Shown piece after piece: positions 10,714 through 63,556 of a DNA stretch of 63,556 nucleotides. The DNA is from an uncultured Desulfobacteraceae bacterium (lineage in GTDB: Bacteria; Desulfobacterota; Syntrophobacteria; BM002): assembly GCA_964346905.1 (NCBI GenBank), contig CAYFXH010000005.1, forward strand, positions 1 to 63,556, written 5' to 3'. The notes beneath the pieces are model-generated. The model did no database searches, was not told the origin of the DNA, and saw only the letters and a program-made list of their open reading frames with translations. Every line of letters begins with the position of its first letter. The stretch's first letter is position 1. The position numbers and the translations under genes were made by a program.

Positions 10714-10715
10714 CC

Positions 10716-34257: not shown

Positions 34258-35124
34258 TTAAGGACCCGTGGCGCTGTACCACGTACTGTTGGGATATTTG
34301 GCTAGTCGGGCGGCCCTGGCATCCTCAATGAGTTGGATGGTTGCTGCGGCATTGGCATTTCCCATGCTTGCTGCCTCACGTAACAGGGGCAGGGCCGGAT
34401 CCTCAATCAGCGCCAAGCAGGCAGGGGCACCACCCATTACCTTCTTGCGGGCAAATGCTGGAATCTTCGCCATGAAACCGGTAACTGGACTGGCAGCCTC
34501 ACCTGTCTTTTTAACCAGAAGCCGCATCAACCGGGTATCGCTCATCCAGGCACGGTCAACGTTGCTCAAGGTTCCGCCGTTTAGAACGATGTTACGTTTT
34601 TGTTGCAACATTCCTCGCAGACCTACCAAGGCCCCCTTGGCCACTTGCGGATTTGGGCTTTCAAGATAAAAGAGGATGGCACCGAGGTACTCCTCATTGG
34701 TCGCTTTTTCGAAGGCGGCAGTCAGAAACTGCTTGTTGATTTTTTTATTCCAGGATGTCTGGGGCATACCAACCAATCGGGTAAGCACCGCCAGATTTGC
34801 CCCTGAAATCCGATTGAGGGTGATGTGGTATTGCTGTTTGTAGTAAACGGCGGAAGCCTGGTTTCGCTCCAGATAATACTTCTGGGCATGGCCGTAGTAG
34901 ATGAACAAGGGTGCGTTTCCGTTGGGATCGTTTTCCTGGTTCTGGGCCAGATCGATGACTTTGTCATAATTATTCCTGTCAAAGGTGTTCAGAGTGTCTC
35001 TTTCCCAGTCGAGTAAGGGGCGTTCTGCCCACATTAGGGACTGGGCCGAAAGACTTGATATCCCTCCGCTTACGAGAAATACCAAGATAACGGCGAAACC
35101 AGATAACCCTGTCCTCTTGCCCAT
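34258..35124 (-). CDS. Secreted hypothetical protein
   Basis: The ATG at 35124 follows AGGAGA. The signal peptide is MGKRTGLSGFAVILVFLVSGGISSLSAQS. I recognise no family. Confidence 0.55.
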   Translation of the reverse strand: MGKRTGLSGFAVILVFLVSGGISSLSAQSLMWAERPLLDWERDTLNTFDRNNYDKVIDLAQNQENDPNGNAPLFIYYGHAQKYYLERNQASAVYYKQQYHITLNRISGANLAVLTRLVGMPQTSWNKKINKQFLTAAFEKATNEEYLGAILFYLESPNPQVAKGALVGLRGMLQQKRNIVLNGGTLSNVDRAWMSDTRLMRLLVKKTGEAASPVTGFMAKIPAFARKKVMGGAPACLALIEDPALPLLREAASMGNANAAATIQLIEDARAARLAKYPNSTWYSATGP

Positions 35125-35411
35125 GGATTGGTCTCCTTTTTTCAGCAATAGCCGGTAAGAGATTGGCTGCAGATTATAGAAACGGTACACCGGTATGTCA
35201 AACTAACAATGGTGTGTATCTCGTCAGTGGTGCGTCGCACCAAAAAGCAGAGCGCATGGAGCATAGAGTTTCCCTTTTCGGACCGTGCTCCATGCTCAGT
35301 GCCCTCCGAAACGGCCGAAGAATCCACTGAAGTCGCAGAGGTTTGACACCTGACAGCAAACCTGCCGAGCTCTGGTGAAGATTTGGCCGTGCACCCGGAG
35401 CAGCGGGTCAT

Positions 35412-37133
35412 TTATTGGTCGGTATTGGTCTGCACGTTTGCCAGTGGATTAGATCCATCGAGCCCTTCGGGTACGGGTATTCCCAACAGCTGGGTCACCA
35501 TGGGAACCAGATCGAGGGTTGAACCGGTACGTTTAAGGGAGTGGCGGGCGGGGATAATTCTAGACAAACCGGGCCCGGCCACCCAGAGAGATACGATTAG
35601 ATCCTCCGGATAGAAACTGCCGTGGTGTCCATACTTGTCGAAGTCGCGTTCAAAATAATATCCTTTCTTGTTAATTAACTTGATATCCGGGGCTGTCTCT
35701 CTGGTATATTGTCTTCTCAGTCCTTGAACTATATGTTCTCCCAATTCGAAGTGTTCTGCCAGCTCATCAAGAGGCCGCAGGGCACTGAGGAAGGCAGCAT
35801 CCTCGCCCGCACTGGCCCGATAGGAGCGGTAATCAAAGACCCACCACTGATCGCTCTCCGTCACACCATCATGTCGCTCTTTCGGATACTGACGGATCAC
35901 CATGGAATAAATGGATGTCTGCACATCCGGATTGGCCAGGATGAGATCCACCGCCGGCTTGACATCGGCTAACAACCGGGGTGGATCCAGCCAATTTCCT
36001 GTTTGTCGGTTCTTCAGGTAAATTTCCTTTGTGCAGGCCCCTGGCATAATAACTGCATCGGCCCGACGGTTGCTCCTTGTCCAGCCGGGCAGTTTGAAAT
36101 GGCCGTCCAGGCTGGGATGCAGGGTGTTGTCAGGTATGTGTTTTCGGATACGGATGAAGCCGTGCTCAGAGACCAGAATAACGATGGTGTCCTGGTAGCT
36201 CCCAACCTTCTTGAGACCACTGATCAACCTACCCATCAATGGATCCAACACCGTCTGGGTGTACTGTTTTTGAATTTCGTCCATGGACGCTTGACGTTTT
36301 TTGAAATCACCAACGGGATAGTGGGAGAACAGGTCTGTGCCCAACAGTTGCACCACCATTACATCGGGAACCAGGTGCTTATACCTGGAAATCCCTGCCA
36401 GACTCTTCCCATAAGACAGTATGCGGCCGGTCAGAAAACCATCCAGGGTCTTGTGGTCCACATAACGGCTATCCGGAATCCATTTGCCATTGCGGAACGC
36501 TCCCAGAACTGAACCGTTACCCCAGAAAAACATGCCGGATTTCACTGACCAATCCGCCCCTTTGGTTAGCATGAGCATGGTGGTCATGGAACGTTTGCCT
36601 GCCTCACCCACATAATCAAACAGAGTCTTGACTCCCCGCGCCTTCAGAATACGGTTAATTCGCGTTTGTGAGTAAGAGATGAGTGTGCGAATCTGGGTTG
36701 TGGTCCGGTCAAACCAGATGGTGGAAACAACCCCGGTGGCCTGAGGATACAGCCCGGTGTACATGGAGGTTATAGCTGGTTGAGAGGCGGCCGGAATGGT
36801 GGTGAAAACCCGGGGAAGATATACATAGGCCTGATCGTTGTTGGGTCCTTTAATGAGTTCCTGAAAATTGGGTAGTCCTTCCAGGTCTTCATCGAGAATG
36901 TTTCGTTTCATTCCGTGGAATTCGAGTATCAGCACCTTGGGGCTTGTCCTGCCAGCCTTTGCGCTTCCCCCCACGAGCACCAATACGAGAAGTGCCGTGG
37001 TCACCAGTGAAACTGCCGGAATTGTATGGTGGCGTAGTTTCTGGAAATACCGAGGTTCCATGCGCTTCATCTTCTCAAGGGGGCGAGCAGTGGAGTCGTT
37101 ATGTATATATCCAGGCATCATAAACAAAAGCAA
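35412..37133 (-). CDS. Alkaline-phosphatase-superfamily protein (nucleotide pyrophosphatase/phosphodiesterase-like), membrane anchored
   Basis: 573 aa maximal ORF with an N-terminal TM helix. Motifs VLILEFHGM, FTTIPAASQPAITSMYTG and TIVILVSEHGF. Confidence 0.65.
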   Translation of the reverse strand: MLLFMMPGYIHNDSTARPLEKMKRMEPRYFQKLRHHTIPAVSLVTTALLVLVLVGGSAKAGRTSPKVLILEFHGMKRNILDEDLEGLPNFQELIKGPNNDQAYVYLPRVFTTIPAASQPAITSMYTGLYPQATGVVSTIWFDRTTTQIRTLISYSQTRINRILKARGVKTLFDYVGEAGKRSMTTMLMLTKGADWSVKSGMFFWGNGSVLGAFRNGKWIPDSRYVDHKTLDGFLTGRILSYGKSLAGISRYKHLVPDVMVVQLLGTDLFSHYPVGDFKKRQASMDEIQKQYTQTVLDPLMGRLISGLKKVGSYQDTIVILVSEHGFIRIRKHIPDNTLHPSLDGHFKLPGWTRSNRRADAVIMPGACTKEIYLKNRQTGNWLDPPRLLADVKPAVDLILANPDVQTSIYSMVIRQYPKERHDGVTESDQWWVFDYRSYRASAGEDAAFLSALRPLDELAEHFELGEHIVQGLRRQYTRETAPDIKLINKKGYYFERDFDKYGHHGSFYPEDLIVSLWVAGPGLSRIIPARHSLKRTGSTLDLVPMVTQLLGIPVPEGLDGSNPLANVQTNTDQ

Positions 37134-37189: not shown

Positions 37190-38353
37190 TTAGAATCCCA
37201 GCCTCAGGACCAGGTATACTTTGGGATCGCGCTCGGTATCGGTCACGCTCTGGGCCACATCGAAGCCTACCACAAAGGGGATTTTGCCAAATACGAACAT
37301 CTGCAGCCTCAGACCAGCACCAACGCCCACGTCCACCCCAGAGATGGAGTCACTGTCATCATATTCTCGCCAGATTTGGCCGGTGTCCACAAAAGCCACC
37401 GTCTGCAATTGTTGAAAGTGAAAGAGGTCCCAAGCGGTGGTTGTGCGGTTGATGACGAGAACCGGATAGCGAAATTCTAAACTAGCGGCCCACATCTTTT
37501 CGCCGGAGAAATCGTTAAAGTCGTAGCCTCGCAGACTGTCTTGGCCACCCAGGACAAACAGCCTTGGGTCGTCCTTCTTGACGCCGCCATGGAACCGCAA
37601 GGCCGTCACCAACCGGTGCCCAGACTTGAAATAGCGGCGTAAATTGAGATTGGCATAGAGCCGCAGATCTCCAGAATAACTCTGAAAGTCACGCTGGCTA
37701 CCCAGGGTCTTATCGCCATATTTTGCGGTGAGATTCACCTGGGTGCCGGAAATAATATCCATAATGTAATACTCGGCGGTATCGCGCACCAAACTCAGCA
37801 AGACGCTGTTGAGTCGCTCGGTTTCGTCCGGCAAATCCACCCATGACATCTCATAGCCGGGTGCTATACGATGGTATAGATTGATGGGCCAGCTGACAAT
37901 GGCATTGCCGCCCAGTTCTCTGAGCCAGTCGTCCTCATCATTGCCCGTGTCCTTGAGGTCTCCGAAAAAGGTATTCTTGTCGAAGAGGTTCAATCCGAGG
38001 GCGGGGTACCAGCCCAGATAGCTATAACCTGCCTGCAGTTGTTCCTTACCACTTTCTGTACCCACACCACCACGAAAGCTCAACCTATGCTCTCCCGTGT
38101 AACTGCTGCCTTCCCAATGCATACCGGGGATGACTCCGTCTTTTTCATTGTAGTCCAGATAAGGGAAGAAAAAATCAGTGGAAAAACCACCACGGAACTC
38201 TTGCTGTTCATATGATTCAGCCAAGCCTGAAAATGCAAAGAAAAGAGGCAGGATTGGTACGAATCCAAGCAAAAACAACCTGCTCAGCCCACGTGTCCTC
38301 TGGGGTGACGTTTTGGCGGCTTCCCTCCAGCAACCGTCAAGGCCCGCCGACAT
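37190..38353 (-). CDS. Omp85/BamA-family (bacterial surface antigen) outer-membrane beta-barrel without an obvious POTRA array
   Basis: 387 aa. The C-terminal region reads LGGQDSLRGYDFNDFSGEKMWAASLEFRYPV...GVGAGLRLQMFVFGKIPFVVGFDVAQ and ends in aromatic ...LRLGF. Confidence 0.7.
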   Translation of the reverse strand: MSAGLDGCWREAAKTSPQRTRGLSRLFLLGFVPILPLFFAFSGLAESYEQQEFRGGFSTDFFFPYLDYNEKDGVIPGMHWEGSSYTGEHRLSFRGGVGTESGKEQLQAGYSYLGWYPALGLNLFDKNTFFGDLKDTGNDEDDWLRELGGNAIVSWPINLYHRIAPGYEMSWVDLPDETERLNSVLLSLVRDTAEYYIMDIISGTQVNLTAKYGDKTLGSQRDFQSYSGDLRLYANLNLRRYFKSGHRLVTALRFHGGVKKDDPRLFVLGGQDSLRGYDFNDFSGEKMWAASLEFRYPVLVINRTTTAWDLFHFQQLQTVAFVDTGQIWREYDDSDSISGVDVGVGAGLRLQMFVFGKIPFVVGFDVAQSVTDTERDPKVYLVLRLGF

Positions 38354-40079
38354 CCCCGACTCCTAGCCTCCACGCCAGCATGGGGCTTTCAAAGAGCCTG
38401 TACTGGCCGTGACGAAAGTAGCTGAAGAGCAACCGCTGCCCATCTGGACTGACTTGAGGCGAGAAAATACCGCCAATCACCTGAGACAGAGGCCAGGTGG
38501 CGCCGGTTTGCAGGTCCAGTCGGTGGAGATTAAAAATACCATTCTGATCGGAGACATACAGGAGGGCTTTGTTTTCAGGGAGGAACAGGGACCACAGTTC
38601 ATCGTATGGTGTTTCAGTGAGACGGGTCTCGGTGTCGCTCTTGAGGTCTTTGAGGATCAGATCGTATTGGTGTTGATACTCTCTGGAGAAAACAAGGAAA
38701 CTTCCATCTGACGACCAGCGGGGGTAGGCCTCGTCGTTGCTGGTCTGGGTCAGGGGGGTAACTTCGCCGTCGTCGAGTCGGATCTTGTAGATGTCAGCAA
38801 AACCGTTTACTGTGGCCACAAAGCCCACCTCCCTGTCTCCAGAGAGAAAGGAAGGATATCGATTGATGCGGAGTTTCTGTTTTATTTGTTTCACCTTCTT
38901 CTGCTTCAGATCGTAAACAAAGAGATCGCTGCGATTGTCATCATCGCTCACGATAACGAGACGGCTGCCATCATGGGACCACCCGAGAGGAGAGAGTTCT
39001 AAACCCCGCCTCTTGAGTCTGGTCAACCGGCCGGTGGCAACTTCCATGAGATAGAGCGAAAAATTCAGAGCCTCATTCTCCCAGTCAGACAGGAAGGCAA
39101 TATGGCTGCCGTCGGGACTATAGACCGGGAAGAGATTCCAGCCCTTGTTGGCAGTTAATAGCTCCACTTGGCGGAGCGGGTCCTGCCACCCCGGTCCTCC
39201 CACACGAAGCCGCCCATCGGCATACTGCTGCCAGGCCCGCTCAAGAGTCCTGAAATTTTTGCCGGTGACCTGCTGGAGGGCCTCGTGGATATTCAGCCTG
39301 TTTTTTATCAGTCTGAGGAGACGGGGAACGGATTCCTGGCCATGGGTATCCACCAGAAACTGAATGAAAAGATCACTTTGGTAGTAGGCCAACCGAATTT
39401 GGTGGGGGGGCAAGTGGCTAAAGCCACGCAACTGGTTGAGGGGAATAAGATTGTGGTCCATAACCGCATCTCGTACAAACATGGAAGCCATGGAGCCCCA
39501 AGAGCGGGATTCGTATTGCGCAACCCCTTCCATGAACCAGAGAGGCGACAGCACACCGGTTAGGACAATCTGCAAAGAGCGATAGGGCCCCTCAAGAAGG
39601 TACTTTAGTTGGACGGCGTGGGTGATCTCGTGTAGCGCCAATTGTTTGAGGCGTCTGTCGTTGCTCTGGACCGGGAATACCACTCTCTCTTTGAAGAATT
39701 CGGTAAAGCCACCACTACCCTCAACCAATCCAGTAATAATCTGCGTGGTCTCGTACTCCTCTTGGGATGGATAAATGAATACGGGAATGGTGCGGTCAAA
39801 GTGTATCTCAAGATTCCGAGCGATACGCTCCAGATGAGTCCTATAGATTTCAGCCACGTCCAGGGCTCGCTCTCGGAGGGTATCGGGATAGATGATGCGA
39901 AATTGATCGGTTTGGATCTCCTTCCAGTCATAGCTGGTGTCGTTTACCTTGTTCTTGCCGAACAACCTCTCGGCACCCGTTACGGTCATTTGATCTTGAG
40001 CGCAGGAAAGCATGGCCAGTAGACACAAGCCGGACAAGAGACTGACCAAGGTCTCTTTTCTGTTAGCACTCTTGGACAT
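38337..40079 (-). CDS. Lipoprotein fusion: MA-clan HExxH peptidase-like domain + TolB-like PD40 beta-propeller
   Basis: The probable start is MSKSANRKETLVSLLSGLCLLAMLSC at 40079. Contains LALHEITHAVQ and then repeated PD40-like blades (YSPDGSHIAFLSD, WSHDGSRLVIVSD, PRWSSDGSFLVFS, SPQVSPDGQRLLFS). Confidence 0.7.
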   Translation of the reverse strand: MSKSANRKETLVSLLSGLCLLAMLSCAQDQMTVTGAERLFGKNKVNDTSYDWKEIQTDQFRIIYPDTLRERALDVAEIYRTHLERIARNLEIHFDRTIPVFIYPSQEEYETTQIITGLVEGSGGFTEFFKERVVFPVQSNDRRLKQLALHEITHAVQLKYLLEGPYRSLQIVLTGVLSPLWFMEGVAQYESRSWGSMASMFVRDAVMDHNLIPLNQLRGFSHLPPHQIRLAYYQSDLFIQFLVDTHGQESVPRLLRLIKNRLNIHEALQQVTGKNFRTLERAWQQYADGRLRVGGPGWQDPLRQVELLTANKGWNLFPVYSPDGSHIAFLSDWENEALNFSLYLMEVATGRLTRLKRRGLELSPLGWSHDGSRLVIVSDDDNRSDLFVYDLKQKKVKQIKQKLRINRYPSFLSGDREVGFVATVNGFADIYKIRLDDGEVTPLTQTSNDEAYPRWSSDGSFLVFSREYQHQYDLILKDLKSDTETRLTETPYDELWSLFLPENKALLYVSDQNGIFNLHRLDLQTGATWPLSQVIGGIFSPQVSPDGQRLLFSYFRHGQYRLFESPMLAWRLGVGDVGGP

Positions 40080-40154
40080 ACGTTCACAGAAAATGATGGG
40101 TTGCACCTGCACCCTATCAGCATGAGCGCAGGGAGGATTCACTATAACAACGGT

Positions 40155-41084
40155 TCACTTGGAATCACTGAGACCCTTGGCGGCATCCTCAAGAGTGACC
40201 GCAGTTTCGGTATATAGTACCTGAGCCTGGCGGTGAATCCACCGGACCGAGCGACCAAGCATCTGGCCCGGACCTATTTCAACCATGGGCCCCAGATTCT
40301 GGCTAATCAACTGCTCCACCACCCCCAGCCAACGTACCTGACTGTGGAGCTGAATTGAGAGCAGCTCTGCCACCTGAGCCGCCTTCTCCAAAAACTGGTA
40401 GTCGATGTAGGAGATGATGGGGGTGTGGGGCTCATTGATAGCGGTCTGGGCAATCCTTTCGGCCAAGCATTGATAGGCACCGTTGAGGAGGCTACAGTGA
40501 TAGGGTGCCGCCGCAGGTAGCCAATCGGTCTTTAGAGCTTGGGAATCGAGCGCTCGTTTCAGAAGCTGGTCCACTGCCGGACGCTCACCGGAGACGATGA
40601 TCTGGTGCCTGGTGTTGACGATGCTCACCTCCACCACACCCTTTACCCGTTCGCACAGTTCCTCAATCTCCGGGAGCGAAAGACCCAGGACAACACCCAT
40701 ACCACCCTGGGTGTTGGCCTGCTGGATACAGCGATCGGCTGCCAACATGAGGGTGAGACCGCTTTCAAAGTTCAGAACTCCGGCGGCATAGGCGGCCGCA
40801 TATATTCCTGAACTGTAGGGCGCCAGGGCGGCAGCCCTGATGCCCCTGGCTGCCAGCAAGTCTGCCACCATACAGCTCACGGTGTAGACTGCCACTTGGG
40901 AGATGAGATCCTCATGGAGCCTCTCTTCAGGTCCGGAGAACATGATGTCCCCCAGGGGTAGACCCAAGTGGGCCTCGGCCCGTTTCAGCATATCCATACT
41001 TTCGCTGAAACGTTCAACTAGATCACGCCCCATGCCCAGGTGTTGGGCGCCTTGGCCTGGAAACAGAAAGCTACAACTACTCAT
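40155..41084 (-). CDS. FabD-like acyl-carrier-protein S-malonyltransferase with a non-canonical nucleophile elbow (PYSSG instead of GHSLG)
   Basis: 309 aa. Begins FLFPGQGAQHLGMG. The elbow region is AALAPYSSGIYAAAYAAGV, and the overall length and layout match FabD. Confidence 0.7.
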   Translation of the reverse strand: MSSCSFLFPGQGAQHLGMGRDLVERFSESMDMLKRAEAHLGLPLGDIMFSGPEERLHEDLISQVAVYTVSCMVADLLAARGIRAAALAPYSSGIYAAAYAAGVLNFESGLTLMLAADRCIQQANTQGGMGVVLGLSLPEIEELCERVKGVVEVSIVNTRHQIIVSGERPAVDQLLKRALDSQALKTDWLPAAAPYHCSLLNGAYQCLAERIAQTAINEPHTPIISYIDYQFLEKAAQVAELLSIQLHSQVRWLGVVEQLISQNLGPMVEIGPGQMLGRSVRWIHRQAQVLYTETAVTLEDAAKGLSDSK

Positions 41085-41794
41085 GGCCGGCCCCTACCCT
41101 GAAACTTCTCCACCTGGAAACCTTCTGGAGGCTCAACCCTAAACAAACCGTCCGGGAGTTTGGTGTTTTCGCGTAGGTTTGATAGGTAAATCACGGTCCA
41201 GTCTTTGTTGGACTCTAAGATAGCGATCTCCTGAGGCAGCCAGGTGCTAGGATCGATCTTCACCTCCAACCGTTTAAAATAACGAGCCCTCCTGCGAGAT
41301 TTTGGTTCCATGGTCATCTGCACCCATATTTCACCACCCGGTCGGGGGAGGGGTGCAACCTGTACCCGGTATTGACGCTGAAACGCTTCTGGATCACCAG
41401 TTGCACCGGTGATCCGCTCCAACAGTCCGCCGCCGAGCGGTTTCCGGTACAGATTTGCCTTCTTCAGGTCAGGATAGAGAACAAGAATCATATCATCCTG
41501 GACCACCAGGGTAAGAGGGGCGGGCCCAACCACCTCCCAGTGCAGTCGAGCCGGTGGTTGCCAATAGAGGTTACCCTCCGACTCTAGGGGCGTTACTAGC
41601 AGCCGCGAGTATTTGAGTTGTTGGAAACGAGCGCTGAGGCTTTTGAGTTCCTGGGCCTTGGTCTGGAGGTGGGCAAGCACCTCGGTCGTGGTGAAGGGAC
41701 CGGCTGCTGTCGCCTGCAGCCAGCTAAAGGAAGCAGTTCCGCCCAGAATGAGGCTGAAACTTAGCACAATGGCCAACCGTGCCGGAGTCTTCAT
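41081..41794 (-). CDS. LolA-like outer-membrane lipoprotein-carrier family protein
   Basis: The ATG at 41794 follows AAGGAG and precedes a signal peptide. Contains LKSLSARFQQLKYSRLLVTPLESEGNLYWQPPARLHWEV. It has a 4 nt overlap with the fabD-like gene. Confidence 0.65.
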   Translation of the reverse strand: MKTPARLAIVLSFSLILGGTASFSWLQATAAGPFTTTEVLAHLQTKAQELKSLSARFQQLKYSRLLVTPLESEGNLYWQPPARLHWEVVGPAPLTLVVQDDMILVLYPDLKKANLYRKPLGGGLLERITGATGDPEAFQRQYRVQVAPLPRPGGEIWVQMTMEPKSRRRARYFKRLEVKIDPSTWLPQEIAILESNKDWTVIYLSNLRENTKLPDGLFRVEPPEGFQVEKFQGRGRP

Positions 41795-42117: not shown

Positions 42118-43104
42118 CTACCTGCGGTACGATTGGATTTTCTGCTCTTCTATGGGCTCCACTAGGTACCACTGGTCCGGATAGCGGCGGATGTATCGTT
42201 CAAATACCGCCGCCACCTGTTCTAGGTTGTGCTGCAGCGCTTTTCTGCGATCAGGGCCATACCGTAAGTTTAGCGGCTGCTCGATGATGCCTCGGTACTG
42301 TCCCGGAGCCTCCATCACTGAAAAGGCAGGAACAACAGGCGCCTGAGCAGCCATGGCCAGAAGTAGCGGTCCCACCGGCAGGTGCACCTGGCGATGGAAC
42401 AATGTCGTTACTTCTGATCGATCAGAAAAAACCCGATCACCCAATACGGCCACCACCTCATTTCGCTTTAGAGCCTTCATTAGCTCAATGGCGCCGTAGG
42501 CTGACTCCTCCACTTCAATGATCTGGATACCGTGACGCTGGCGCATTACATTTATGAGGCCATCGGTGAATGTGGTGTTGTGCCTGATGGCGGCCACGTT
42601 AACCGGATAGCCCATGGCCCGTAACCCCAAACCCCCAATTTCCCAGTGGCCCAGATGCGCGGTCAGCAAAACCGCGCCTCGCCCCTTCAGCAAGGCCTCG
42701 TCCAGATGGTGACGTCCTTCATAGCAGTGAGCAAAAGCTTGGCTTTCCTCCAGTGTCATGCTGAGCAGGCGGAAGAAATCGACAATGTAGATGCCATAGT
42801 TCTGAAAGAATTTCCAGAGTAACAGCCGTCGACCTGCTGGCGGTTGACAGTCATGGAAGATGACGTCCAGATTGTGTAAGACGTGACGCCGGTCGCGTCG
42901 CGAGAATGCAAAGGCCAGTGCAGCAACGATTCGCGCTAACCCATAGGAGACGGATGCTGGCAGAGACTGAACCGTCTTCAGGGCCTGTCGATACAAGAAC
43001 GGTTTATCCAAAACATGTACACGCATGGTCAACCATAGCCCGCAAGAACTGGCAGCAATGAAGTCAGCAACCCTCTTTTGATGTATAATGCAAGGTGCCG
43101 TCAC
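42118..43104 (-). CDS. LpxL/HtrB-family (lysophospholipid/lipid A) acyltransferase
   Basis: 328 aa. The N-terminal TM region is followed by LLTAHLGHWEIGG (HX4E/D-type motif) and VAVLGDR. Confidence 0.75.
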   Translation of the reverse strand: MTAPCIIHQKRVADFIAASSCGLWLTMRVHVLDKPFLYRQALKTVQSLPASVSYGLARIVAALAFAFSRRDRRHVLHNLDVIFHDCQPPAGRRLLLWKFFQNYGIYIVDFFRLLSMTLEESQAFAHCYEGRHHLDEALLKGRGAVLLTAHLGHWEIGGLGLRAMGYPVNVAAIRHNTTFTDGLINVMRQRHGIQIIEVEESAYGAIELMKALKRNEVVAVLGDRVFSDRSEVTTLFHRQVHLPVGPLLLAMAAQAPVVPAFSVMEAPGQYRGIIEQPLNLRYGPDRRKALQHNLEQVAAVFERYIRRYPDQWYLVEPIEEQKIQSYRR

Positions 43105-43625: not shown

Positions 43626-44936
43626 ATGTCACTCCGTATACTGTTGATTTCCCCCATTGGTCTCAAGAAAGTTCTCGGAGCAGATTTTTTCTTTAAGCTG
43701 CCCTTTTTGGGCTTGCCTACCATCGCTGCGTACACTCCGCCGGGTTGTGAAGTCAAGATGGTGGATGAGCGAATAAGTCCAGTGGATTTCGATGATGATG
43801 CAGATCTGATCGGGATTAGCGTGATGACTCCACTGGCTACCCGGGCCTATGAGATTGCGGATGAGTTCAAGCGACGGGGCAAGACGGTTGTTATGGGTGG
43901 CATGCACGTGTCCGCACTTCCGGATGAAGCCCTGGAGCATTGCGATGCGGTCGCGATTGGCGAAGGGGAACAAGTATGGCCCCAGATGGTGGAGGACTTC
44001 AAAAGAGGGGAACTGAAAAAGATCTACAAGGCCGAAAAGTTGTTTGACTTATCGGCAGCGCAACCGCCCAGATGGGATATCATTGACAAGGGATTGTATA
44101 GTCCGGTGGACTTCATCGAGACCACCCGAGGATGCCCGATCAACTGCAATTTCTGCGCTGTTACCCAGTACTACGGGGCTAAATACCGAACCAAACCCGT
44201 CGGTCTCGTTGAGGAAATGGTGGCACAAGTAAAGCCGGTGGATAAAATCCTCGCTCTCAAGAATCTCATATTCTTCGTTGATGACAACATTATTGCTAAC
44301 CGGAAACACGTCATAGAGCTGTTGAGAATGTTAAAATCTTACAATATCCAGTGGCTAGGGCAGGCCTCCATATCGGTTGCGAAGGATGACGAACTCCTGA
44401 AGCTCATGTCCGAAACCCGGTGTCTCGGGCTCCTGATAGGGATGGAAAGCCTTTCCAATGACACCTTGGCGGAATGTGGCAAACGTATCAATAAACCGGC
44501 TGAATACGAGGAGGCCGTGGCCAGGTTGCACCGTTATGGCATTGGCGTGAAGGCTGCGTTTATGGTTGGCTTCGACAACGATGACATCTCCGTATTTCCT
44601 ACAATGGAAAGATTCATCCGAAGATCCAGCTTTGACAGCGTCTATTTCAGTATTCTCACACCCTATCCGGGCACACGGCTTTATCAGCAGATGGAGAGCG
44701 AGGGCAGGTTGATCCACAAGGATTGGGCAAGGTACGACACTGCTCATGTTGTTTTTCGTCCGAAAAAAATGACCGTGCAACAGCTGGAACAGGGATTTAT
44801 CTGGCTCAATAAGAAGGCCCTTTCGCTCAGATCCATAGTTTTGCGACTTGCTTGGGCGAGAACAGTACCTCAGTTTTTCATTCCTGACAATTTAGCCTTC
44901 AGATCCTGCCTTTTGAAAATGCTGCGAGGGGCATAA
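43626..44936 (+). CDS. B12-binding-domain radical SAM protein
   Basis: 436 aa. The N-terminal Rossmann-like cobalamin domain reads DLIGISVMTPLATRAY...VVMGGMHVS. It is followed by TRGCPINCNFCAV (CX3CX2C). Confidence 0.85.
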   Translation: MSLRILLISPIGLKKVLGADFFFKLPFLGLPTIAAYTPPGCEVKMVDERISPVDFDDDADLIGISVMTPLATRAYEIADEFKRRGKTVVMGGMHVSALPDEALEHCDAVAIGEGEQVWPQMVEDFKRGELKKIYKAEKLFDLSAAQPPRWDIIDKGLYSPVDFIETTRGCPINCNFCAVTQYYGAKYRTKPVGLVEEMVAQVKPVDKILALKNLIFFVDDNIIANRKHVIELLRMLKSYNIQWLGQASISVAKDDELLKLMSETRCLGLLIGMESLSNDTLAECGKRINKPAEYEEAVARLHRYGIGVKAAFMVGFDNDDISVFPTMERFIRRSSFDSVYFSILTPYPGTRLYQQMESEGRLIHKDWARYDTAHVVFRPKKMTVQQLEQGFIWLNKKALSLRSIVLRLAWARTVPQFFIPDNLAFRSCLLKMLRGA

Positions 44937-49378: not shown

Positions 49379-49895
49379 CTCTTGCTTGGAAAATCCTCCC
49401 ATGACACGGTTCGCCACTTTGCTCGCCTTCATTTTCTGTCTCACTTCATTGAATTCTGTCTTGGCTGATAACGAAATTACTCATGAGGACAAATGCCGGG
49501 TGTGGAAAACGTACGTAGACCGCAGGGTAGCACGGTACCGCGAAGAAATAGAGGTGATGAGTACAAAACAGGCCTCCCTAGAGGAGAGGCTCGCCCGCCC
49601 CGAGTCCTTGAAAAACGAGAGGGAGAGGTCGATGTATCAGGAAAAAGCGGCGTCGGCTCAGGAAAAGATCCGTTTAAACCAACTAAAAATCGACCGATTC
49701 CAGCAGCGAAGAAATTGTGCATATGCTGCCGGACTTTCCCCAATCAAATACCGCTACTGCAAGTGGGTGCTTGAGGCCTCCAGGCAGGGAAAATCCACTG
49801 GTGCTAAACTCATGGCCTTCGTGAGCGAGATGGGTAACGCCACCAAGGAGGAACTCTACCAGCTGCGAGAGTGGTTGCATGATCTGGGCGAGTAA
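49368..49895 (+). CDS. Secreted coiled-coil hypothetical protein
   Basis: 175 aa with a signal-like segment TRFATLLAFIFCLTSLNSVLA. It overlaps the upstream stop. I recognise no family. Confidence 0.45.
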   Translation: MAINSCLENPPMTRFATLLAFIFCLTSLNSVLADNEITHEDKCRVWKTYVDRRVARYREEIEVMSTKQASLEERLARPESLKNERERSMYQEKAASAQEKIRLNQLKIDRFQQRRNCAYAAGLSPIKYRYCKWVLEASRQGKSTGAKLMAFVSEMGNATKEELYQLREWLHDLGE

Positions 49896-51206: not shown

Positions 51207-53792
51207 TCATCCTAATCTCCCCGTCTCCCTTTGCCCGTGTCCCCGTGGCAATCTTTGCTCACACCATGACAGCACTGCCGGCAGCAGAATGAGAGCGGCA
51301 AGAAGGCAGCTGAGGATGCCCAGGCCGGTAACCCAGCCGATGCTGCGCAGACCGGGATAATGGGAGCTCACCAAGGAACCGAACCCTATGGTGGTGGTCA
51401 AGGAGGTAAGTACAATGGCGCGACCTATTTGCCTGAGAACCACCGTTAGGCTCTGTGTCGACTCCTCTCGCCAGTGGTGGACAATGTGAATGCCATCATC
51501 AATCCCGATCCCCACGATCAGAGGCAATACAATGAAGTTGGCGTAATTAAATGGCAGTGACGCCAAGGCCATAACCCCCAACATGGCAATGATTCCGGCA
51601 ACCAGGGGAATGATAGCGAGAGCTGCAGTCAAAGGGTGTCGCAGAGCCAAAAGCAGTGCCACCGTGATAGCCACACCGGCCAGAACGAGGGAGTCGCCCA
51701 AATCTTGCCAGACCAGGCCTTTGAGATGATCTGTCAAAACCGGCCATCCGGCCAGCCGCCACTGGCTCTGACTCAGGCCACTTTCGGCCACGGCCCTTTG
51801 AAGATCCAGGGTTAAACGCTTCAGATCGCTCTTACGCCACAACCCTTCCCGGGGATAGATAAAGGTGAACAGCTTTTTGTTTTGCCCGTGACCCACCAGA
51901 AAAAGATCCAGCAAGCCCTGGAGATTGGCTTGCTGGAACGTTCCTGAATCAACCTCTCCGCTGGGCTGCACCAGTGTTCTCAACCAGCGCAGATATGCGT
52001 CGTACTCAGGGAGAAAGTGGAAACCGTTCTCCTGAAGGGCCTGTTTGAAGGAGGCTTCGATACGATCAGGATTGAGCTCCGCACCGTGGCGATGGAAGAA
52101 CTCCAGTGCCTTCCGCTGGCCCTCCGGTGCCGGCCAGTAGGAAAGAATGCTGCGATAGTGCGACAATCTCCCCGCACTCTGCAGTCGGTTCAAAGCCTTC
52201 TCAATACGCCAGGCGCGATTCAGCAGTACCGCATCGCTATCACCCTCCAAGACCAGGAGCAGATATCCGCTGGCGCCACCCAGGATGGACTCAAGTTGTT
52301 TCTCCACGGCCATGTGGTCTGCTTGTTGGGGCCGCAAAGCCCGGAGCTCTTCTTCAAAGGAGACGTCAAAGGCTGACACCCCAAGGATTGTCAACAAGAC
52401 CAGGCTGGTTGCCACAACTAGGCGTGGACGGGCTACCACGGAGCTGATCAGGGACTCGAGACCAAAGTTGGGAATAGGTCGGGCCGAGCCCAGGATTCCA
52501 CCACGGTTCTGCTGGTAAACAAGGAGAGCAGGAAGCACCACCAGCATGGCGGTGAGGCAGGCAATCATGCCCACACCGGTAATGATACCCAGTTCTTGAA
52601 ATCCCCTGAAAGAAGATGCTCCCAGAGCAAAAAAGGCTGCCGCAGTAGTCAGTCCTCCCATGAGAATTGCACGACCGCTTTTCGTCAATGCCAGGTGCAG
52701 CGCGGTTGGCTGGTTCTGACTCTGAGAGGCCTCCACATATAGGTTGAGCAAGTGTATGGCGAAGTCAATACCGAGTCCCAAGAGAACGGCGGCGAAGGCA
52801 CCGGTGAGGATGTTGACGTGGCCGAAAATAAGCTGCAAAGCCCCGAAGGTCCAGATAAGGGCCATGCCCAGTGGTAGGAGCATGAGAAAAAGGATGCGCA
52901 GCTGTCGAAAGACGAGATAAAAGAGAAGGGTAACACCGAGGAACGAGATGATGAAGCTGCTTTGCAAATCTCTACGGGTAAGAGCCTCGTCCTCCAGGGC
53001 AATGGGATATCCGCCGGCGAAAGAGACAGTGGGAGCGATAGGGTCGCCGGGGTGAGATTGCTGCCAGTTGCGAACGGCGTTTTCGGCTGCCGCCGAAACA
53101 GCAGCCATGAGACGTTTGGTGTATTCGATGTTTCGCGCCGATTGCTCGGGCCGTATGAATATCAGAAGATGACGGCGGCTCTTATCCACCAGGTAGCCAT
53201 CCTCCAGATCAAGGCCGGCAAAAGAACGCTGGGCAAACCAGCGGGAAAGCCAGAGGTGGCGCAGTCCCAGAGGGTCTCTTACGATGAGTTCCCTGACTCC
53301 ACCCTGCATTGGCATCAACAGGAGACGTTTGTTTTCTCGCACCTGATTGTGAATGGAAGCATCACTCAGCCGGTGGAGCAGATCAAGCCTTTCCTTTTCG
53401 GAGAGAAACAAGGCAGCATGAGGCATAAGAACCTCAGTGAAGAAGCGTTTCTGTTGGCTGCTAACCCTGGCCTCCAGATACCCTATGTGCGGGAAAGATG
53501 TTATTTCTTCAACAAATGCATCGACTACTTGCTTGCCGCTTTCCAGGTCTCCAGGTTCAGGGAGACTGACCAGCACGACAAGCACGTCCTGAGGGCCCGC
53601 TTCCTGCAGATCGGCCAATAGTTTTCTGGCCTGGCTGTCTCTGGACGGCATGAGAGAGTCGAGGCTGGAGTCCATTCGGAGCTGGGTGATGAGTACAATG
53701 GACAGTCCGGTGAGAAGGGCAGCGCTCAGCAGAATCAGCCGATGGCCTCGGACAATGCGGTCAGCAAGAGCTGCAAAGAGAGTCTGGGCCAT
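51207..53792 (-). CDS. MMPL/RND-superfamily (sterol-sensing-domain-type) lipid exporter
   Basis: 861 aa. It has two blocks of about 6 TM helices, each preceded by a large soluble loop. Sample motifs are GIDFAIHLLNLY and GIGIDDGIHIVHHW. Confidence 0.8.
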   Translation of the reverse strand: MAQTLFAALADRIVRGHRLILLSAALLTGLSIVLITQLRMDSSLDSLMPSRDSQARKLLADLQEAGPQDVLVVLVSLPEPGDLESGKQVVDAFVEEITSFPHIGYLEARVSSQQKRFFTEVLMPHAALFLSEKERLDLLHRLSDASIHNQVRENKRLLLMPMQGGVRELIVRDPLGLRHLWLSRWFAQRSFAGLDLEDGYLVDKSRRHLLIFIRPEQSARNIEYTKRLMAAVSAAAENAVRNWQQSHPGDPIAPTVSFAGGYPIALEDEALTRRDLQSSFIISFLGVTLLFYLVFRQLRILFLMLLPLGMALIWTFGALQLIFGHVNILTGAFAAVLLGLGIDFAIHLLNLYVEASQSQNQPTALHLALTKSGRAILMGGLTTAAAFFALGASSFRGFQELGIITGVGMIACLTAMLVVLPALLVYQQNRGGILGSARPIPNFGLESLISSVVARPRLVVATSLVLLTILGVSAFDVSFEEELRALRPQQADHMAVEKQLESILGGASGYLLLVLEGDSDAVLLNRAWRIEKALNRLQSAGRLSHYRSILSYWPAPEGQRKALEFFHRHGAELNPDRIEASFKQALQENGFHFLPEYDAYLRWLRTLVQPSGEVDSGTFQQANLQGLLDLFLVGHGQNKKLFTFIYPREGLWRKSDLKRLTLDLQRAVAESGLSQSQWRLAGWPVLTDHLKGLVWQDLGDSLVLAGVAITVALLLALRHPLTAALAIIPLVAGIIAMLGVMALASLPFNYANFIVLPLIVGIGIDDGIHIVHHWREESTQSLTVVLRQIGRAIVLTSLTTTIGFGSLVSSHYPGLRSIGWVTGLGILSCLLAALILLPAVLSWCEQRLPRGHGQRETGRLG

Positions 53793-59126: not shown

Positions 59127-59493
59127 GAGTTTGTCAGGATTAGACGTTTAGCTGGACCGTGGTATAGTACTATAGCAAATGGGCGAGGGATTCAATGCCA
59201 TATTCTCCTGTCTACACCGGGATGCAACCTGAGTCAACCTTGACGCGAAAGGCATAATCTGATAAACAACACTACCTCTCCCCAGCCAATTTTTCTTCCT
59301 TCGCTACGAGAAAATTGTGTTCGTTCTCAAGAGGCCCACCAGAACTAACTGGTGCCAAGAGAAATAGAAGCTCGTCGGCCTGGTAAGAGATTGGGATTTT
59401 GACGGCACAGTAAATCCGCCTGAACCGGACCAGATGCAATCCCGCCGAGGGCGGGACACCTGGACTTTTTGCGAAGCCGTCAAGCTTGGTTCT

Positions 59494-60234
59494 ATGAGAT
59501 TCAAGGGTAAAATCGCTCTTATAACTGGTGGAATCCGAGGCATTGGTGCGGCCATTAGCAAGAGTTTCCTTCTCGAGGGTGCCCATGTTGTGGTAACCTA
59601 TTCCCAGGATCAAGATCAGGCGCGAACATTTCAAGAGGAACTCGGGACCAGTGCTCCACAAGCGATTGTTCACCGTGCAGACGCGTCTGACTTTGATGGT
59701 ATGAAAATTCTGGTCGAGCAAACCCTTGAGCAATTTGGCCGTCTGGATATCCTGGTAAACAACGCCGGAATTCGGCGTGACAACCTGGTAATGTTCATGT
59801 CTGAAGCAGAGTGGCATGATGTGCTGCGGGTGAATCTCCAGGGTACTTTCGTCTGCTCCAAGCTGGCACTGAAACCCATGATTGCCCAGCGGTGGGGACG
59901 GATGATCAACATCGTCTCACCGAGTGCATTAATGGGTCGTCAAGGCCAGGCCAACTATGCCGCAGCCAAAGGGGGTGTAGCAAGCTTCACCAAGTCTCTG
60001 GCAAGAGAGGTGGGTAAGCTCGGTATCACTGTCAATGCCGTGTCTCCTGGGGTCATTGAGACCGATATGACTCGTTCCTTGCCTGAAAAAACCCTGGCTG
60101 AACTGAAGCAGTCCATCCCCATGGGCCAATTCGGCCGACCGGAAGATGTGTGCGGAACAGTTTTGTTCCTGGCCTCAGAGGGAGCCTCTTATATTACCGG
60201 ACAAGTTATCAGGGTGGATGGAGGTTTGACCTGA
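59494..60234 (+). CDS. fabG: 3-oxoacyl-ACP reductase (SDR)
   Basis: The internal ATG at 59494 gives MRFKGKIALITGGIRGIGAAIS. Also present are NNAGI, GQANYAAAKGG and GQVIRVDGGL. Confidence 0.85.
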   Translation: MRFKGKIALITGGIRGIGAAISKSFLLEGAHVVVTYSQDQDQARTFQEELGTSAPQAIVHRADASDFDGMKILVEQTLEQFGRLDILVNNAGIRRDNLVMFMSEAEWHDVLRVNLQGTFVCSKLALKPMIAQRWGRMINIVSPSALMGRQGQANYAAAKGGVASFTKSLAREVGKLGITVNAVSPGVIETDMTRSLPEKTLAELKQSIPMGQFGRPEDVCGTVLFLASEGASYITGQVIRVDGGLT

Positions 60235-60286
60235 GCCAATTTATTGGACCAAATTTTGCATATACGGGCTTGAACAGAAGCTTCTC

Positions 60287-60607
60287 ATGAAGGAGGAACT
60301 GGCATTGCAAATGTCCTTGTTAGAGCGGGAAGATCTCGTCGAACATCTGAAGGCGCTCCTTGTCCGCACTCTCCGTTTAGAAGACATTGGCCCGGAGGAC
60401 ATCGTTGACTCAGAGCCCCTGTTTGGCGATGGGCTAGGCCTCGATTCCATCGATGCCCTGGAATTGGTGGTTGCCATCGAGAGGGAGTACGCTGTTGAGA
60501 TCCCAGACGCGGAGGTGGGACGGCGTGCTTTTGCTTCAGTCGATGCGCTGGCGGATTTCATACGTGAGAAGGGGGCGGTGCAAAAGGCTTCCGATGCGGT
60601 GGGTTGA
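60287..60607 (+). CDS. Acyl carrier protein (long form)
   Basis: 106 aa. Contains LFGDGLGLDSIDALELVVAIE, with the phosphopantetheine Ser in DSID. Confidence 0.8.
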   Translation: MKEELALQMSLLEREDLVEHLKALLVRTLRLEDIGPEDIVDSEPLFGDGLGLDSIDALELVVAIEREYAVEIPDAEVGRRAFASVDALADFIREKGAVQKASDAVG

Positions 60608-61019
60608 AACCACGACGAAGGTCAGGTTCAATGAGGTGGATCAATGGGGCATAACCTGGTACGGTCACTATTTTGCCTGGTTTGAACTGGCTCGGATGAA
60701 AGTTCTGGAGAAGTTCTCCCTCCTTCCCGAAGACTTCACCGCTTTGGGGTTTGTGGCACCGGTGGTGAATGCCCATTGCGAATTCAAGAAACCAGCCCGC
60801 ACCAATGACCTCATACAGATACGAGCACACCTTCTGAAGCCACAGACGGCATCTCTGACCTTTCAATTCGAAATTCTGTTGCAGAATGACGAATCTTTGC
60901 TCGCCAGGGGTGAAACGGTTCAGGTCTTACAGCGGTTGGATGGAACCATGATATACAAACTAACCGGCACCCTCAAAGAGCGGGTGGAGTCGATGGTCCA
61001 ATATTTTTGGCCCGAATAA
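60594..61019 (+). CDS. 4HBT/YbgC-type hotdog thioesterase
   Basis: The ATG at 60594 overlaps the ACP stop by 14 nt. Contains TKVRFNEVDQWGITWYGHYFAWFELARMKVLEK. Confidence 0.7.
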   Translation: MRWVETTTKVRFNEVDQWGITWYGHYFAWFELARMKVLEKFSLLPEDFTALGFVAPVVNAHCEFKKPARTNDLIQIRAHLLKPQTASLTFQFEILLQNDESLLARGETVQVLQRLDGTMIYKLTGTLKERVESMVQYFWPE

Positions 61020-61090
61020 ACGAGTGGGGTCACATTCTTGGTGGTTGTTGCCTGAAACCAATCTCAATCAGTTTCGCAATCAGTTCGGTA

Positions 61091-61168
61091 AACCACAAAG
61101 ACCACAACGTGCACAAAGAGGACACTACCATTGAGGCGAAATTCTTTGTGATCTTATCCTTTGAGGTG
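61091..61168. repeat. Imperfect inverted repeat built on CACAAAG / CTTTGTG words
   Basis: ACCACAAAGACCACAACGTGCACAAAGAGG is mirrored by TTCTTTGTGATCTTATCCTTTGAGGTG. It uses the same word set as the element at 3349-3414. Confidence 0.5.
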
Positions 61169-61230
61169 ATACAGCAGTCTGTTGCTTCTGGGCAACATCC
61201 AGTGCAGACTCGATCCCTATGGACTGAAAT

Positions 61231-61668
61231 ATGTCACTCTCCCATGAACAGGTTCAGAACTTGCTGCCTCACAGATATCCCTTTCTCTTCGTCGACAAAG
61301 TCACTTCCCTGGAACCTGGTCATAGAGTGGAAGGTACATTCCAGGTAAAAGGTGACCACCCCTTCATTAACAAGGTCGGCGAGATTCCAGTTTTTCCAGC
61401 CTTTCTGGTGGTTGAAGCCCTGGGGCAAGTGGCGGCGCTCTGTATCCGTTATCCCCAGCAAAAATCTTCACCTGTACCTGGTGGCCAAGGTTTTCTGGTT
61501 CGCATTGACCAATGTTCATTGGAAAAACCAGCCCGGCCGGAGGACGAGTTACTTTTGACAGCCAATCTGGTGAGAGGATTTACCACCCTTTATAAATTCG
61601 AGGCAAAAGGTTTCGTTGATGGCCAAGTAGTGGTGAAGGCGTCCTTGACCCTTTACCTGGAGTTCTAG
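61231..61668 (+). CDS. FabZ/FabA-like hotdog beta-hydroxyacyl-ACP dehydratase
   Basis: 145 aa. Contains LLPHRYPFLFVDKV and DHPF...FPAFLVVEALGQ (His/Glu pair). Confidence 0.8.
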   Translation: MSLSHEQVQNLLPHRYPFLFVDKVTSLEPGHRVEGTFQVKGDHPFINKVGEIPVFPAFLVVEALGQVAALCIRYPQQKSSPVPGGQGFLVRIDQCSLEKPARPEDELLLTANLVRGFTTLYKFEAKGFVDGQVVVKASLTLYLEF

Positions 61669-61671
61669 CAT

Positions 61672-62403
61672 ATGGCAGTCCCCAAAGATGCAGCATCTTT
61701 CAGATTGTGTGGACTGGTTCCTGCTTTCAATCTTTCTCGTACTATTTCTCAGGTTGTCCGGCAAACCCGGCAGTACCTACCCGAGGTTCTGGTAGTGGAT
61801 GATGGTTCCCAGGATGATACGGCCCAACTGGCCAAGAAAAGTGGCGCCAAAGTTCTCAAAATTCCCAGAAACCAAGGGAAAGGGTGGGCCTTGCGATGTG
61901 GTATCAGGTATTTGCTGCAGGATCCATGGGAGGGGATAATCACTCTTGACGGCGACTTGCAGCACGATCCAACCGAGATCCCCAAACTCGTCCAGGAGTA
62001 TGAACGCACAGGTGCACACATTGTCGTTGGCTCTAGAATGGAGGAGGCGAAAAAGATTCCCTGGATTCGCTATTGGACCAATAGAGTTGGAGTCTACTGC
62101 ATCTCGTGGGCGGCCGGGCAGCCGTTGGCGGACACCCAAAGCGGCTTCCGTGTTTACCGCAGAGAGGTTTTTGAATTGATTCCGCTCTGGACCACTCGTT
62201 ACGATACCGAGACGGAAATCTTGATCAAAGCCGGCATGCGGGGAATGAGGATCACATCTGTTCCCATACAAACGATTTATCATAAGGATGATGCAAACAG
62301 CTCTTCTTTCCGACCTTTTCCGGATACTTTCCTCATTTGCATGGTGTTCTTGAAAAGCCTCTTCTGGCGAAAGGGGTTGTATTTACGTGATTTTGAGATA
62401 TGA
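61672..62403 (+). CDS. Family 2 glycosyltransferase
   Basis: 243 aa. Contains VPAFNLSRTISQVV, VVDDGSQDDT, RNQGKGWAL and DGDLQHDP. It starts 4 nt after the dehydratase stop. Confidence 0.8.
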   Translation: MAVPKDAASFRLCGLVPAFNLSRTISQVVRQTRQYLPEVLVVDDGSQDDTAQLAKKSGAKVLKIPRNQGKGWALRCGIRYLLQDPWEGIITLDGDLQHDPTEIPKLVQEYERTGAHIVVGSRMEEAKKIPWIRYWTNRVGVYCISWAAGQPLADTQSGFRVYRREVFELIPLWTTRYDTETEILIKAGMRGMRITSVPIQTIYHKDDANSSSFRPFPDTFLICMVFLKSLFWRKGLYLRDFEI

Positions 62404-62494
62404 GATAACCGATATCGTTGGAGTGGAGGAGTACTCCGTAGACTTTGACTGCTCTCACGTCTGTGGAGCCTTTAAAACATTGGGGTGGGGTTAG

Positions 62495-63556
62495 ATGAGT
62501 AGGTCGGATGTAATTGTCACCGGAATAGGTGTTGTCTGCGCTCTCGGGGAGAATAAGGACTTATTTTGGAATGCTCTACGTCAGGGCACATGCGGAATCG
62601 GCTCCATAGATCTCTTTAATGTTTCGGGGTACCGCAGCCGTATCGGTGGTCAGGTAAGAGATATTGATTTCTTCTCCCGACTCTCCCCGCACCATTGTCG
62701 TCGGTTGGGACGTTGCGATCTTTTAGGGCTTTGGGCTGCCCATGAAGCTTTAGAGGAAGCGAAAATCATGGAACGCGCCCTTCCTCCCGAGCGCATTGCC
62801 GTCGTCCTAGGTGCAGGTGCCGGCGGTGTACTGGAGGCAGAGCAATACCGCCGCCAGCTCTACGAGGGTCTGGTGCGACCGCGTCCATCTCTGCTTATGC
62901 CGTTTCCGGCCTGCAACCTCACCGACGCCATCGGCAACCTTTACGGTTTTCACGGACCTCGATCTACCATTGCCACCGCTTGCTCTTCCAGTGCTACCGC
63001 CATAGGCTATGGCGCAGATCTCATTCAGTCTGGCCAAGCTGAGGTGGTTATTGTCGGAGGTGCTGAGTCCCTCTCGGAACTTACCTTTTCCGGCTTCAAC
63101 GCGCTCCGCTCAGTGGATCGCTCCACCTGCCGACCTTTTGATCGGAATCGGGAAGGGTTGGTGCTCGGCGAGAGCGGAAGTATTCTGGTGCTCGAGTCAC
63201 GGCGGTTCGCCGAGGCCCACGGGATATCTGGTTATGCTCGCGTGCTTGGATATGGCATTTGTGCCGACGCCTACCACATGACTTCTCCCGATCCTCAGGG
63301 GGAGGGAGCAGAAAGAAGTATGGCCAATGCACTTAACAATGCAGCGGTACCTGCAGATGCAGTGGACTATGTCAACGCCCACGGCACCGGCACGGTACTC
63401 AATGACAGAGTGGAGACTATGGCGATCAAGCGGCTTTTCGGCAAAAGGGCCCAATCGATGCCGGTCAGTTCCGTCAAATCCGCCATTGGACACTGTCTCG
63501 GTGCCGCCGGAGGGGTGGAGGCTGCCGCCACCATCTTGGCCCTCCATCACGGGGTA
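62495..63556 (+). CDS. Beta-ketoacyl-ACP synthase I/II-type condensing enzyme; the 3' end runs off the right window edge
   Basis: Not in the ORF track because there is no stop in the window. Hand translation gives MSRSDVIVTGIGVVCALG... It contains IATACSSSATAIG (Cys), ADAYHMTSP (His) and VNAHGTGT (His). The frame is open to 63556. Confidence 0.85.
   Translation, partial: MSRSDVIVTGIGVVCALGENKDLFWNALRQGTCGIGSIDLFNVSGYRSRIGGQVRDIDFFSRLSPHHCRRLGRCDLLGLWAAHEALEEAKIMERALPPERIAVVLGAGAGGVLEAEQYRRQLYEGLVRPRPSLLMPFPACNLTDAIGNLYGFHGPRSTIATACSSSATAIGYGADLIQSGQAEVVIVGGAESLSELTFSGFNALRSVDRSTCRPFDRNREGLVLGESGSILVLESRRFAEAHGISGYARVLGYGICADAYHMTSPDPQGEGAERSMANALNNAAVPADAVDYVNAHGTGTVLNDRVETMAIKRLFGKRAQSMPVSSVKSAIGHCLGAAGGVEAAATILALHHGV

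Follow-up and report, generated by a model that had tools for sequence, protein, structure and literature searches.

FabD-like enzymes that lack the carboxylate-binding arginine are already known in polyketide systems. Acyltransferases that load monocarboxylic starter units, such as the avermectin loading acyltransferase (4RL1), have the FabD-like fold and the Ser-His pair and have lost this arginine. These loading enzymes belong to modular PKS systems and retain GHSxG. In FabD itself, Arg117 forms a salt bridge with the malonyl carboxylate; loss of this residue turns such enzymes away from malonyl, and in FabD-like acyl hydrolases that do not accept malonyl, Gln or a different residue takes its place (PMC11775670). 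Aryl-polyene gene clusters combine a LolA-like protein, a resistance-nodulation-division (RND) pump, a lysophospholipid acyltransferase, a glycosyltransferase (GT), a thioesterase (TE) and a ketosynthase (KS), ketoreductase (KR) and dehydratase (DH), and have no acyltransferase of their own, their starter being loaded by an acyl-acyl carrier protein (ACP) synthetase (PMC8253772). A "WD40-Omp85" subfamily of the Omp85/TpsB superfamily was catalogued in 2014 (Heinz & Lithgow 2014, PMC4104836). Here we compare these systems with a locus from an uncultured Desulfobacteraceae bacterium (assembly GCA_964346905.1; 4.74 Mb, 286 contigs, 95% complete), which lies in a 63,556-nt stretch of contig CAYFXH010000005.1, referred to below as the window. 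The locus encodes a FabD-fold acyltransferase (AT; 40155..41084, minus strand, 309 aa) that is probably not a malonyl transferase, to judge from its aligned active site, and that forms a constant part of an accessory lipid island.

AT is the second of four minus-strand ORFs between 37190 and 41884, encoding a LolA-like protein, AT, a lipoprotein with an HExxH domain and PD40 blades (peptidase-propeller), and an Omp85 barrel. These assignments, made in an earlier sequence-only reading, were upheld by Pfam matches, and the motifs that it named were all located: FPGQGAQ (as FLFPGQGAQ), PYSSG (as APYSSG) and HEITHAVQ. Two of the junctions that it described are also present, the LolA stop and AT start sharing ATGA at 41081/41084 and the Omp85 ATG (38353) overlapping the peptidase-propeller stop (38337) by 17 nt. 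Its 12-nt gap between AT and the peptidase-propeller gene holds only with GTG 40142 as the start; the ORF is open up to that position, but the signal peptide begins at Met22 (40079), from which the spacing is ∼75 nt. The envelope operon of that reading is one arm of an island of ∼28 kb running to the contig end.

Active site and relatives of the acyltransferase

AT resembles the solved FabDs of Escherichia coli (1MLA and 2G2Z) and Coxiella (3TQE) in its similar length, its two-subdomain fold, its GQG oxyanion loop and its Ser-His pair, at 27-31% identity. Its AlphaFold model (pLDDT 96.3) matches these structures at TM 0.93-0.94 and keeps the strand-Ser-helix nucleophile elbow; the protein matches Pfam Acyl_transf_1 (90 bits), has no signal peptide and is cytoplasmic. 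The differences from FabD concern the active site. In HMMER alignments to the three solved FabDs, PYSSG of AT falls on GHSLG/GLSLG, Tyr replaces Phe/Ser before the His, and Ala116 aligns to E. coli Arg117, the Arg of a conserved "RG". AT therefore carries PYSSGI and PYHC rather than the FabD motifs GHSxG(E) and xFHS, and Tyr flanks both the Ser and the His; the basic C-terminal residues are retained. The alignment check of Arg117 and His201 that had been suggested at the outset was thus answered in two ways, with His201 kept (as His196) and Arg117 replaced by Ala116.

We extended the comparison to 113 relatives plus the two other acyltransferase copies of the same genome. The relatives comprised 69 sequences with at least 56% identity to AT (clade A), 28 with 33-40% identity (clade B) and 16 ordinary FabDs. 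Ser91, His196 and Gln11 of the GQG loop were invariant across the aligned relatives. The Arg117 column, in contrast, held Ala in 68 clade A sequences (Val in the remaining one) and in all 28 of clade B, i.e., Ala in 96/97 arginine-less relatives and Val in 1/97, versus Arg in 16/16 ordinary FabDs. The first elbow residue was Pro in 68 clade A sequences and Gly in 1, and Gly in all 28 clade B sequences and all 16 FabDs. Before the Ser, every member of clades A (69) and B (28) had Tyr, whereas the FabDs had His (10) or Leu (6); before the His, the same 69 and 28 sequences again had Tyr, whereas the FabDs had Phe (15) or Trp (1). A quick tree joined clades A and B (support 96) apart from the ordinary FabDs (99). 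A third clade (C, from family f43), which sat on a long branch, likewise carries Ala in the Arg117 column, with GFSLG as its elbow. One candidate distant member, a 35% match in genome G022, proved to be an ordinary FabD with GHSLG and Arg and was discarded.

AT had been taken for an extra, pathway-dedicated enzyme, an idea that would have been hard to maintain had it been the only fabD in the genome. A canonical fabD is found elsewhere, on contig C39, where it scores 298.4 bits against the curated cut-off of 260.9 (TIGR00128); AT, at 178.4 bits, falls below this cut-off. AT is a second copy, placed in an accessory island and not with fabH, fabG and acpP. Because Arg117 has given way to Ala while neither the Ser-His pair nor the GQG loop has been lost, we infer that AT is catalytically alive but not malonyl-specific.

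The substrate named in the sequence-only reading is not supported. It saw AT as a malonyl transferase. Spelled out, AT would be a dedicated malonyl-CoA:ACP transacylase charging an island ACP that the housekeeping FabD does not recognize, and we regard this as unlikely. The retained FabD fold, GQG loop and Ser-His pair would suit such an enzyme, and its top NCBIfam matches are indeed fabD (178 bits) and mdcH (161 bits), but both scores are under the cut-off and the malonate-binding Arg is replaced by a small residue, Ala or Val, in 97/97 relatives. AT does have an arginine near in sequence, Arg118, two positions beyond the Arg117 column; this residue is not conserved, however, being Arg in 49 of 69 clade A sequences (missing in 20) and in 0 of 28 in clade B (the position is not relevant in ordinary FabDs). 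The KS/KR/DH/ACP module of the island does require malonyl-ACP, yet aryl-polyene-type clusters do without an acyltransferase of their own (PMC8253772), and enzymes without Arg117 reject malonyl (PMC11775670).

These results bear on annotation as well. The automated label of AT is "ACP S-malonyltransferase", and since the missing Arg117 means that the enzyme probably handles something else, this label is probably wrong for the whole subfamily, which spans three clades and, within the single phylum searched, four families. In the literature that we searched, we found no description of a stand-alone subfamily that has a Pro/Gly-Tyr-Ser-Ser-Gly elbow and is fixed in a type II lipid island.

The genome also carries a third acyltransferase-like gene (contig C34:13564-14415; L003:1282-2229), whose product has a GYSMG elbow and Val in the Arg117 column but lacks the GQG loop. 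Its neighbors are a ketosynthase gene on one side and genes for an enoyl-CoA hydratase and a type III polyketide synthase (PKS)/HMG-synthase-like protein on the other, an arrangement that resembles a distinct cassette for beta-branching or polyketide synthesis.

The lipid island and a proposed role for the acyltransferase

The island fills 35.4-63.6 kb of the window. At its far end lies an accessory type II fatty acid synthase (FAS)/PKS module on the plus strand (59434..63556), consisting of KR (59434-60234), ACP (60287-60607), TE (60453-61019), DH (61231-61668), a GT2 glycosyltransferase (61672-62403) and KS (62495-63556); the ACP was confirmed, as was the KS, which is cut by the contig end. 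The island also contains a B12-binding radical SAM enzyme (B12-rSAM; 43626..44936, plus strand), a methyltransferase, a Ger/PlsA-like reductase with its activase, a radical SAM-SPASM (rSAM-SPASM) protein, an MMPL pump of the RND type that resembles the lipid exporter HpnN (51207..53792, minus strand), an LpxL-like acyltransferase of the lipid A biosynthesis/lysophospholipid type (42118..43104, minus strand), and the LolA-like carrier. The last of these (41081..41794, minus strand) is a periplasmic protein of 237 aa starting at Met31 (41794), followed by a Sec-type signal. It passes Pfam LolA (PF03548) with 51.2 bits against a cut-off of 23.6 and falls short of the equivalog models for housekeeping LolA (TIGR00547; 62 versus 112 bits) and LolA2_flexi (68 versus 125), the latter being its best NCBIfam match. 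A better LolA match is encoded on contig C98 of the same genome, and the window protein is therefore an extra copy.

Gene neighborhoods tie AT to this island. Within the same genus (g1), AT orthologs with 70-77% identity occur in 10/17 other genomes, and the order LpxL-like, LolA, AT, peptidase-propeller, Omp85, phosphodiesterase, orf310 (an ORF of 310 aa) is kept in 5/6 loci read. In family f6, AT is present in 7/81 genomes from four genera (56-63% identity), and the four of these that were read (three genera) have the order LpxL-like, B12-rSAM, LolA, AT, with LolA and AT abutting; LolA-AT coupling is thus seen in two families (f1 and f6). Two f6 loci (G436 and G437) also span the methyltransferase, Ger-like reductase, activase, rSAM-SPASM, an ATP-grasp protein, KR, TE, DH and GT2, with an MMPL pump match in G436 only. 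Family f76 has a compact cluster of rSAM, BcrAD activase, DUF2229, DUF2229/HGD-D, LpxL-like, B12-rSAM, AT and DH, and family f43 has the order B12-rSAM, AT, KR, TE, then DH. Across the four families, this type of AT therefore stands beside B12-rSAM (its most constant neighbor), the LpxL-like enzyme (also a conserved neighbor), the Ger/PlsA-like reductase and activase, or KR-TE-DH. Of the 122 genomes that represent the class, the same ∼20 and no others contain the AT, LolA-like and Ger-like genes, the mismatches being fragmented assemblies. From these neighborhoods and this co-occurrence, we conclude that AT belongs to a large lipid island, an uncharacterized lipid-making and lipid-exporting gene set of anaerobic Desulfobacterota.

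The four-gene order, whose conservation the earlier reading proposed to check, is not a conserved unit: outside the genus, the peptidase-propeller and barrel genes are missing from the LpxL-like, B12-rSAM, LolA, AT arrangement, one genome of the genus itself lacks them, and in distant relatives the neighbors of AT are biosynthetic only. The conserved unit is LpxL-like, B12-rSAM, LolA and AT within the ∼28-kb island. We set aside one genome that appeared to be complete (G002), whose "single contig" consists of pieces joined by 100-N runs (L005:19115-19214 and L006:7735-7834) beside the module; because of these joins, its long-range order is untrustworthy, and no weight can be given to the fact that the remaining island genes are missing around the module.

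Much of the island recalls the aryl-polyene and flexirubin clusters (ApeD, ApeJ, ApeK, ApeL and ApeM plus KS/KR/DH/ACP; PMC8253772), with which it shares a type II core (KS/KR/DH/ACP), an LpxL-type acyltransferase, GT2, TE, a LolA-like protein and an RND/MMPL pump. Besides LolA2_flexi for the LolA-like protein, the flexirubin model FlxB matches the KR strongly, both below cut-off. Together, the LpxL-like, GT2, TE, LolA-like and MMPL proteins reproduce the anchoring and export arm of aryl-polyene clusters. The island differs in adding B12-rSAM, rSAM-SPASM, the Ger/PlsA-like reductase with its activase, and AT. No aryl-starter genes (the acyl-ACP synthetase ApeH or another AMP-ligase, or an ammonia lyase) were found among the ORFs of the window, in which the contig ends within the KS.

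We lean, by a modest degree, toward a role for AT in handling a non-carboxylated acyl group on the ACP of the island itself, with the LpxL-like enzyme anchoring the product and the MMPL pump and LolA-like carrier exporting it. In this scheme, the housekeeping FabD would supply malonyl-ACP, while AT would take a non-carboxylated acyl group, be it a starter or a complete fatty chain, from CoA or AcpP and load or move it onto the island ACP; loading of a starter or chain is favored because no acyl-ACP synthetase is encoded in the window. The LpxL-like enzyme and GT2 would then join the tailored chain to a lipid anchor; once expelled by the MMPL pump, the product would be ferried to the outer membrane (OM) by the LolA-like carrier, predicted to be cotranslated with AT. 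A dedicated acyl-transfer step tied to OM export, as originally suggested, is supported by the presence of the carrier, the HpnN-like pump and the LpxL-like enzyme in one lipid pathway; the malonyl substrate and the role of the peptidase-propeller and barrel as a transport set are the parts of that suggestion that we do not retain.

Several observations weigh against our proposal. The substrate and the direction of transfer rest on one missing residue and on gene context, and the related genomes compared are non-independent samples. The Arg two positions downstream, in AT and 49/69 clade A members, might partly substitute for Arg117; the best family matches are still fabD and mdcH, albeit both under cut-off; and the window yielded no candidate enzyme that would produce an acyl-CoA starter unit.

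AT could instead be an acyl hydrolase like PksD (8AVZ) and PedC of trans-acyltransferase (trans-AT) PKSs, either freeing the island ACP of short acyl groups that are stalled or wrong, or releasing the product. These enzymes also combine a FabD-like fold and a Ser-His pair with loss of the carboxylate-binding Arg, and the uncharged residue of AT at that position is part of the signature described for them (PMC11775670). Although PksD appears among the structural matches of AT (ranks 36 and 45), the nearest matches in both sequence and fold are FabDs. The hydrolases occur in modular/trans-AT PKSs, keep GHSxG and usually have Gln at the Arg position, whereas AT is a stand-alone protein of a type II FAS-like island, with Ala and a PYSSG/GYSSG elbow in its subfamily; neither the window nor those related loci that were read showed a modular or trans-AT PKS, and a 4HBT thioesterase is already present in the island. 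Overall, a hydrolase strikes us as improbable.

AT offers an experimentally tractable entry point to the island, an uncharacterized gene set with candidates for ether-bond and tail-modifying chemistry, as AT is small, soluble and confidently modeled and has a known partner ACP.

The peptidase-propeller and Omp85 pair

The peptidase-propeller protein (38337..40079, minus strand) is a lipoprotein in which a Peptidase_MA_2 (HExxH) domain with HEITHAVQ is joined to a PD40 beta-propeller, behind a lipobox-like LLAMLSC. The barrel (37190..38353, minus strand; Pfam Omp85, 58 bits) has its own signal-like N terminus, and its AlphaFold model (pLDDT 83.9) shows 16 strands at residues 57-385 and no POTRA domain, bearing out the earlier suspicion that POTRA domains were lacking; its Foldseek matches are BamA/TamA barrels. 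Most sequence matches of the barrel are the C termini of ∼950-aa proteins. Homologs in KSB1, Zixibacteria, Calditrichota, Nitrospirota and other phyla (25-32% identity) are single Peptidase_MA_2/PD40/Omp85 proteins of 1000-1050 aa, and the two window proteins align collinearly to residues 6-575 (the N-terminal half) and 662-969 of one such fused protein of 1031 aa from candidate division KSB1. The sequence-only reading treated them as separate parts of an insertion/transport set; by this alignment, they are instead the two halves of one split protein of the WD40-Omp85 type, with a 16-strand barrel and with a TolB-like propeller and HExxH domain in place of POTRA, and they probably work as one OM complex. 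In the WD40-Omp85 family, the propeller and barrel share one chain; here they are encoded by two overlapping genes, each with an export signal, inside a lipid island. We rejected a programmed frameshift or a pseudogene as the cause of the split, as the barrel has its own ATG and signal-like N terminus and the split form recurs across the genus and in a "Desulfobacterales" bin (CR_Bin_129, locus L036), at 64-73% identity, and a split pair is also found in Nitrospiria.

Within the class, the pair occurs in genus g1 only, where the two genes are always adjacent. In the L036 bin, they end a unidirectional run of KR, ACP, TE, GT2, KS, KS and B12-rSAM (1448-10890), a related island that provides a second setting for the split pair. 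The closest relatives outside Desulfobacterota, two Nitrospiria pairs (L037:7950-10993 and L065:979-3766; 35-40% identity), are also split and lie among DNA ligase, metallo-beta-lactamase and GH57 genes; the split may therefore predate arrival in the lipid island.

It is doubtful whether the four genes truly function as one unit, with the pair as the OM end of an export route for the AT product. In the six g1 loci that showed both genes of the pair, these do lie between AT and the phosphodiesterase gene, and the L036 run places the pair at the end of biosynthetic genes once more. Yet in one g1 genome (G011), AT is directly followed by the phosphodiesterase gene; the pair is absent from the f6 genomes that have the island and from the f76 and f43 loci read; and of 80 family loci fetched, neither the 75 from other phyla nor the split Nitrospiria copies have island genes within 8 kb. 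The family as a whole occurs widely and without lipid context. We therefore regard the pair as a lineage-specific add-on in one genus, with a possible link to the island. To our knowledge, the WD40-Omp85 family has never been studied experimentally, and its two separate placements in lipid islands provide a weak first hint of function.

Two further observations concern these genes. The KR, TE and GT2 of L036 are only ∼50% identical to those of the window, so L036 may represent a paralogous island type. Only the POTRA part of the canonical BamA of the genome is present (contig C99:16335-17183), cut by the contig end, which is why a Pfam Omp85 search of the assembly finds only the window barrel.

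Other genes of the island

Downstream of the barrel gene lies a gene for a type I phosphodiesterase/alkaline-phosphatase-like protein (35412..37133, minus strand), which is found beside the AT module in genus g1 as well as in two genomes of family f6; as a neighbor of the module in two families, it may modify a lipid head group. On its 3' side in genus g1 is orf310 (34258-35190), which has no family match and no counterpart in the f6 loci read.

Between 47063 and 51006, a plus-strand gene encodes a DUF2229/HGD-D (Ger/PlsA-like) enzyme and a minus-strand gene a BcrAD/BadFG-type activase; the two flank a small 175-aa ORF without known family (49368-49895). With B12-rSAM, the Mss-like rSAM and this Ger/PlsA-like reductase as candidates for methylation, tail-to-tail coupling and ether linking, AT might be imagined as a stand-alone shuttle that diverts finished fatty acyl chains to a dedicated ACP, for branched membrane-spanning ether lipids (brGDGT-like) that would reach the OM via the MMPL pump and LolA-like carrier, a picture that we consider very unlikely. 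B12-rSAM is not a member of the ladderane family, as it reaches 75 bits with the rSAM_ladder_B12 model, for which the cut-off is 360.

In seven genomes (six of g1, and G436 of f6), the sequences matching the Ger-like gene cross one stop near the N terminus of the query, and matches from f6 start at residues 44-53. Given this stop and these later starts, the ATG at 47063 is probably upstream of the true start of the gene.

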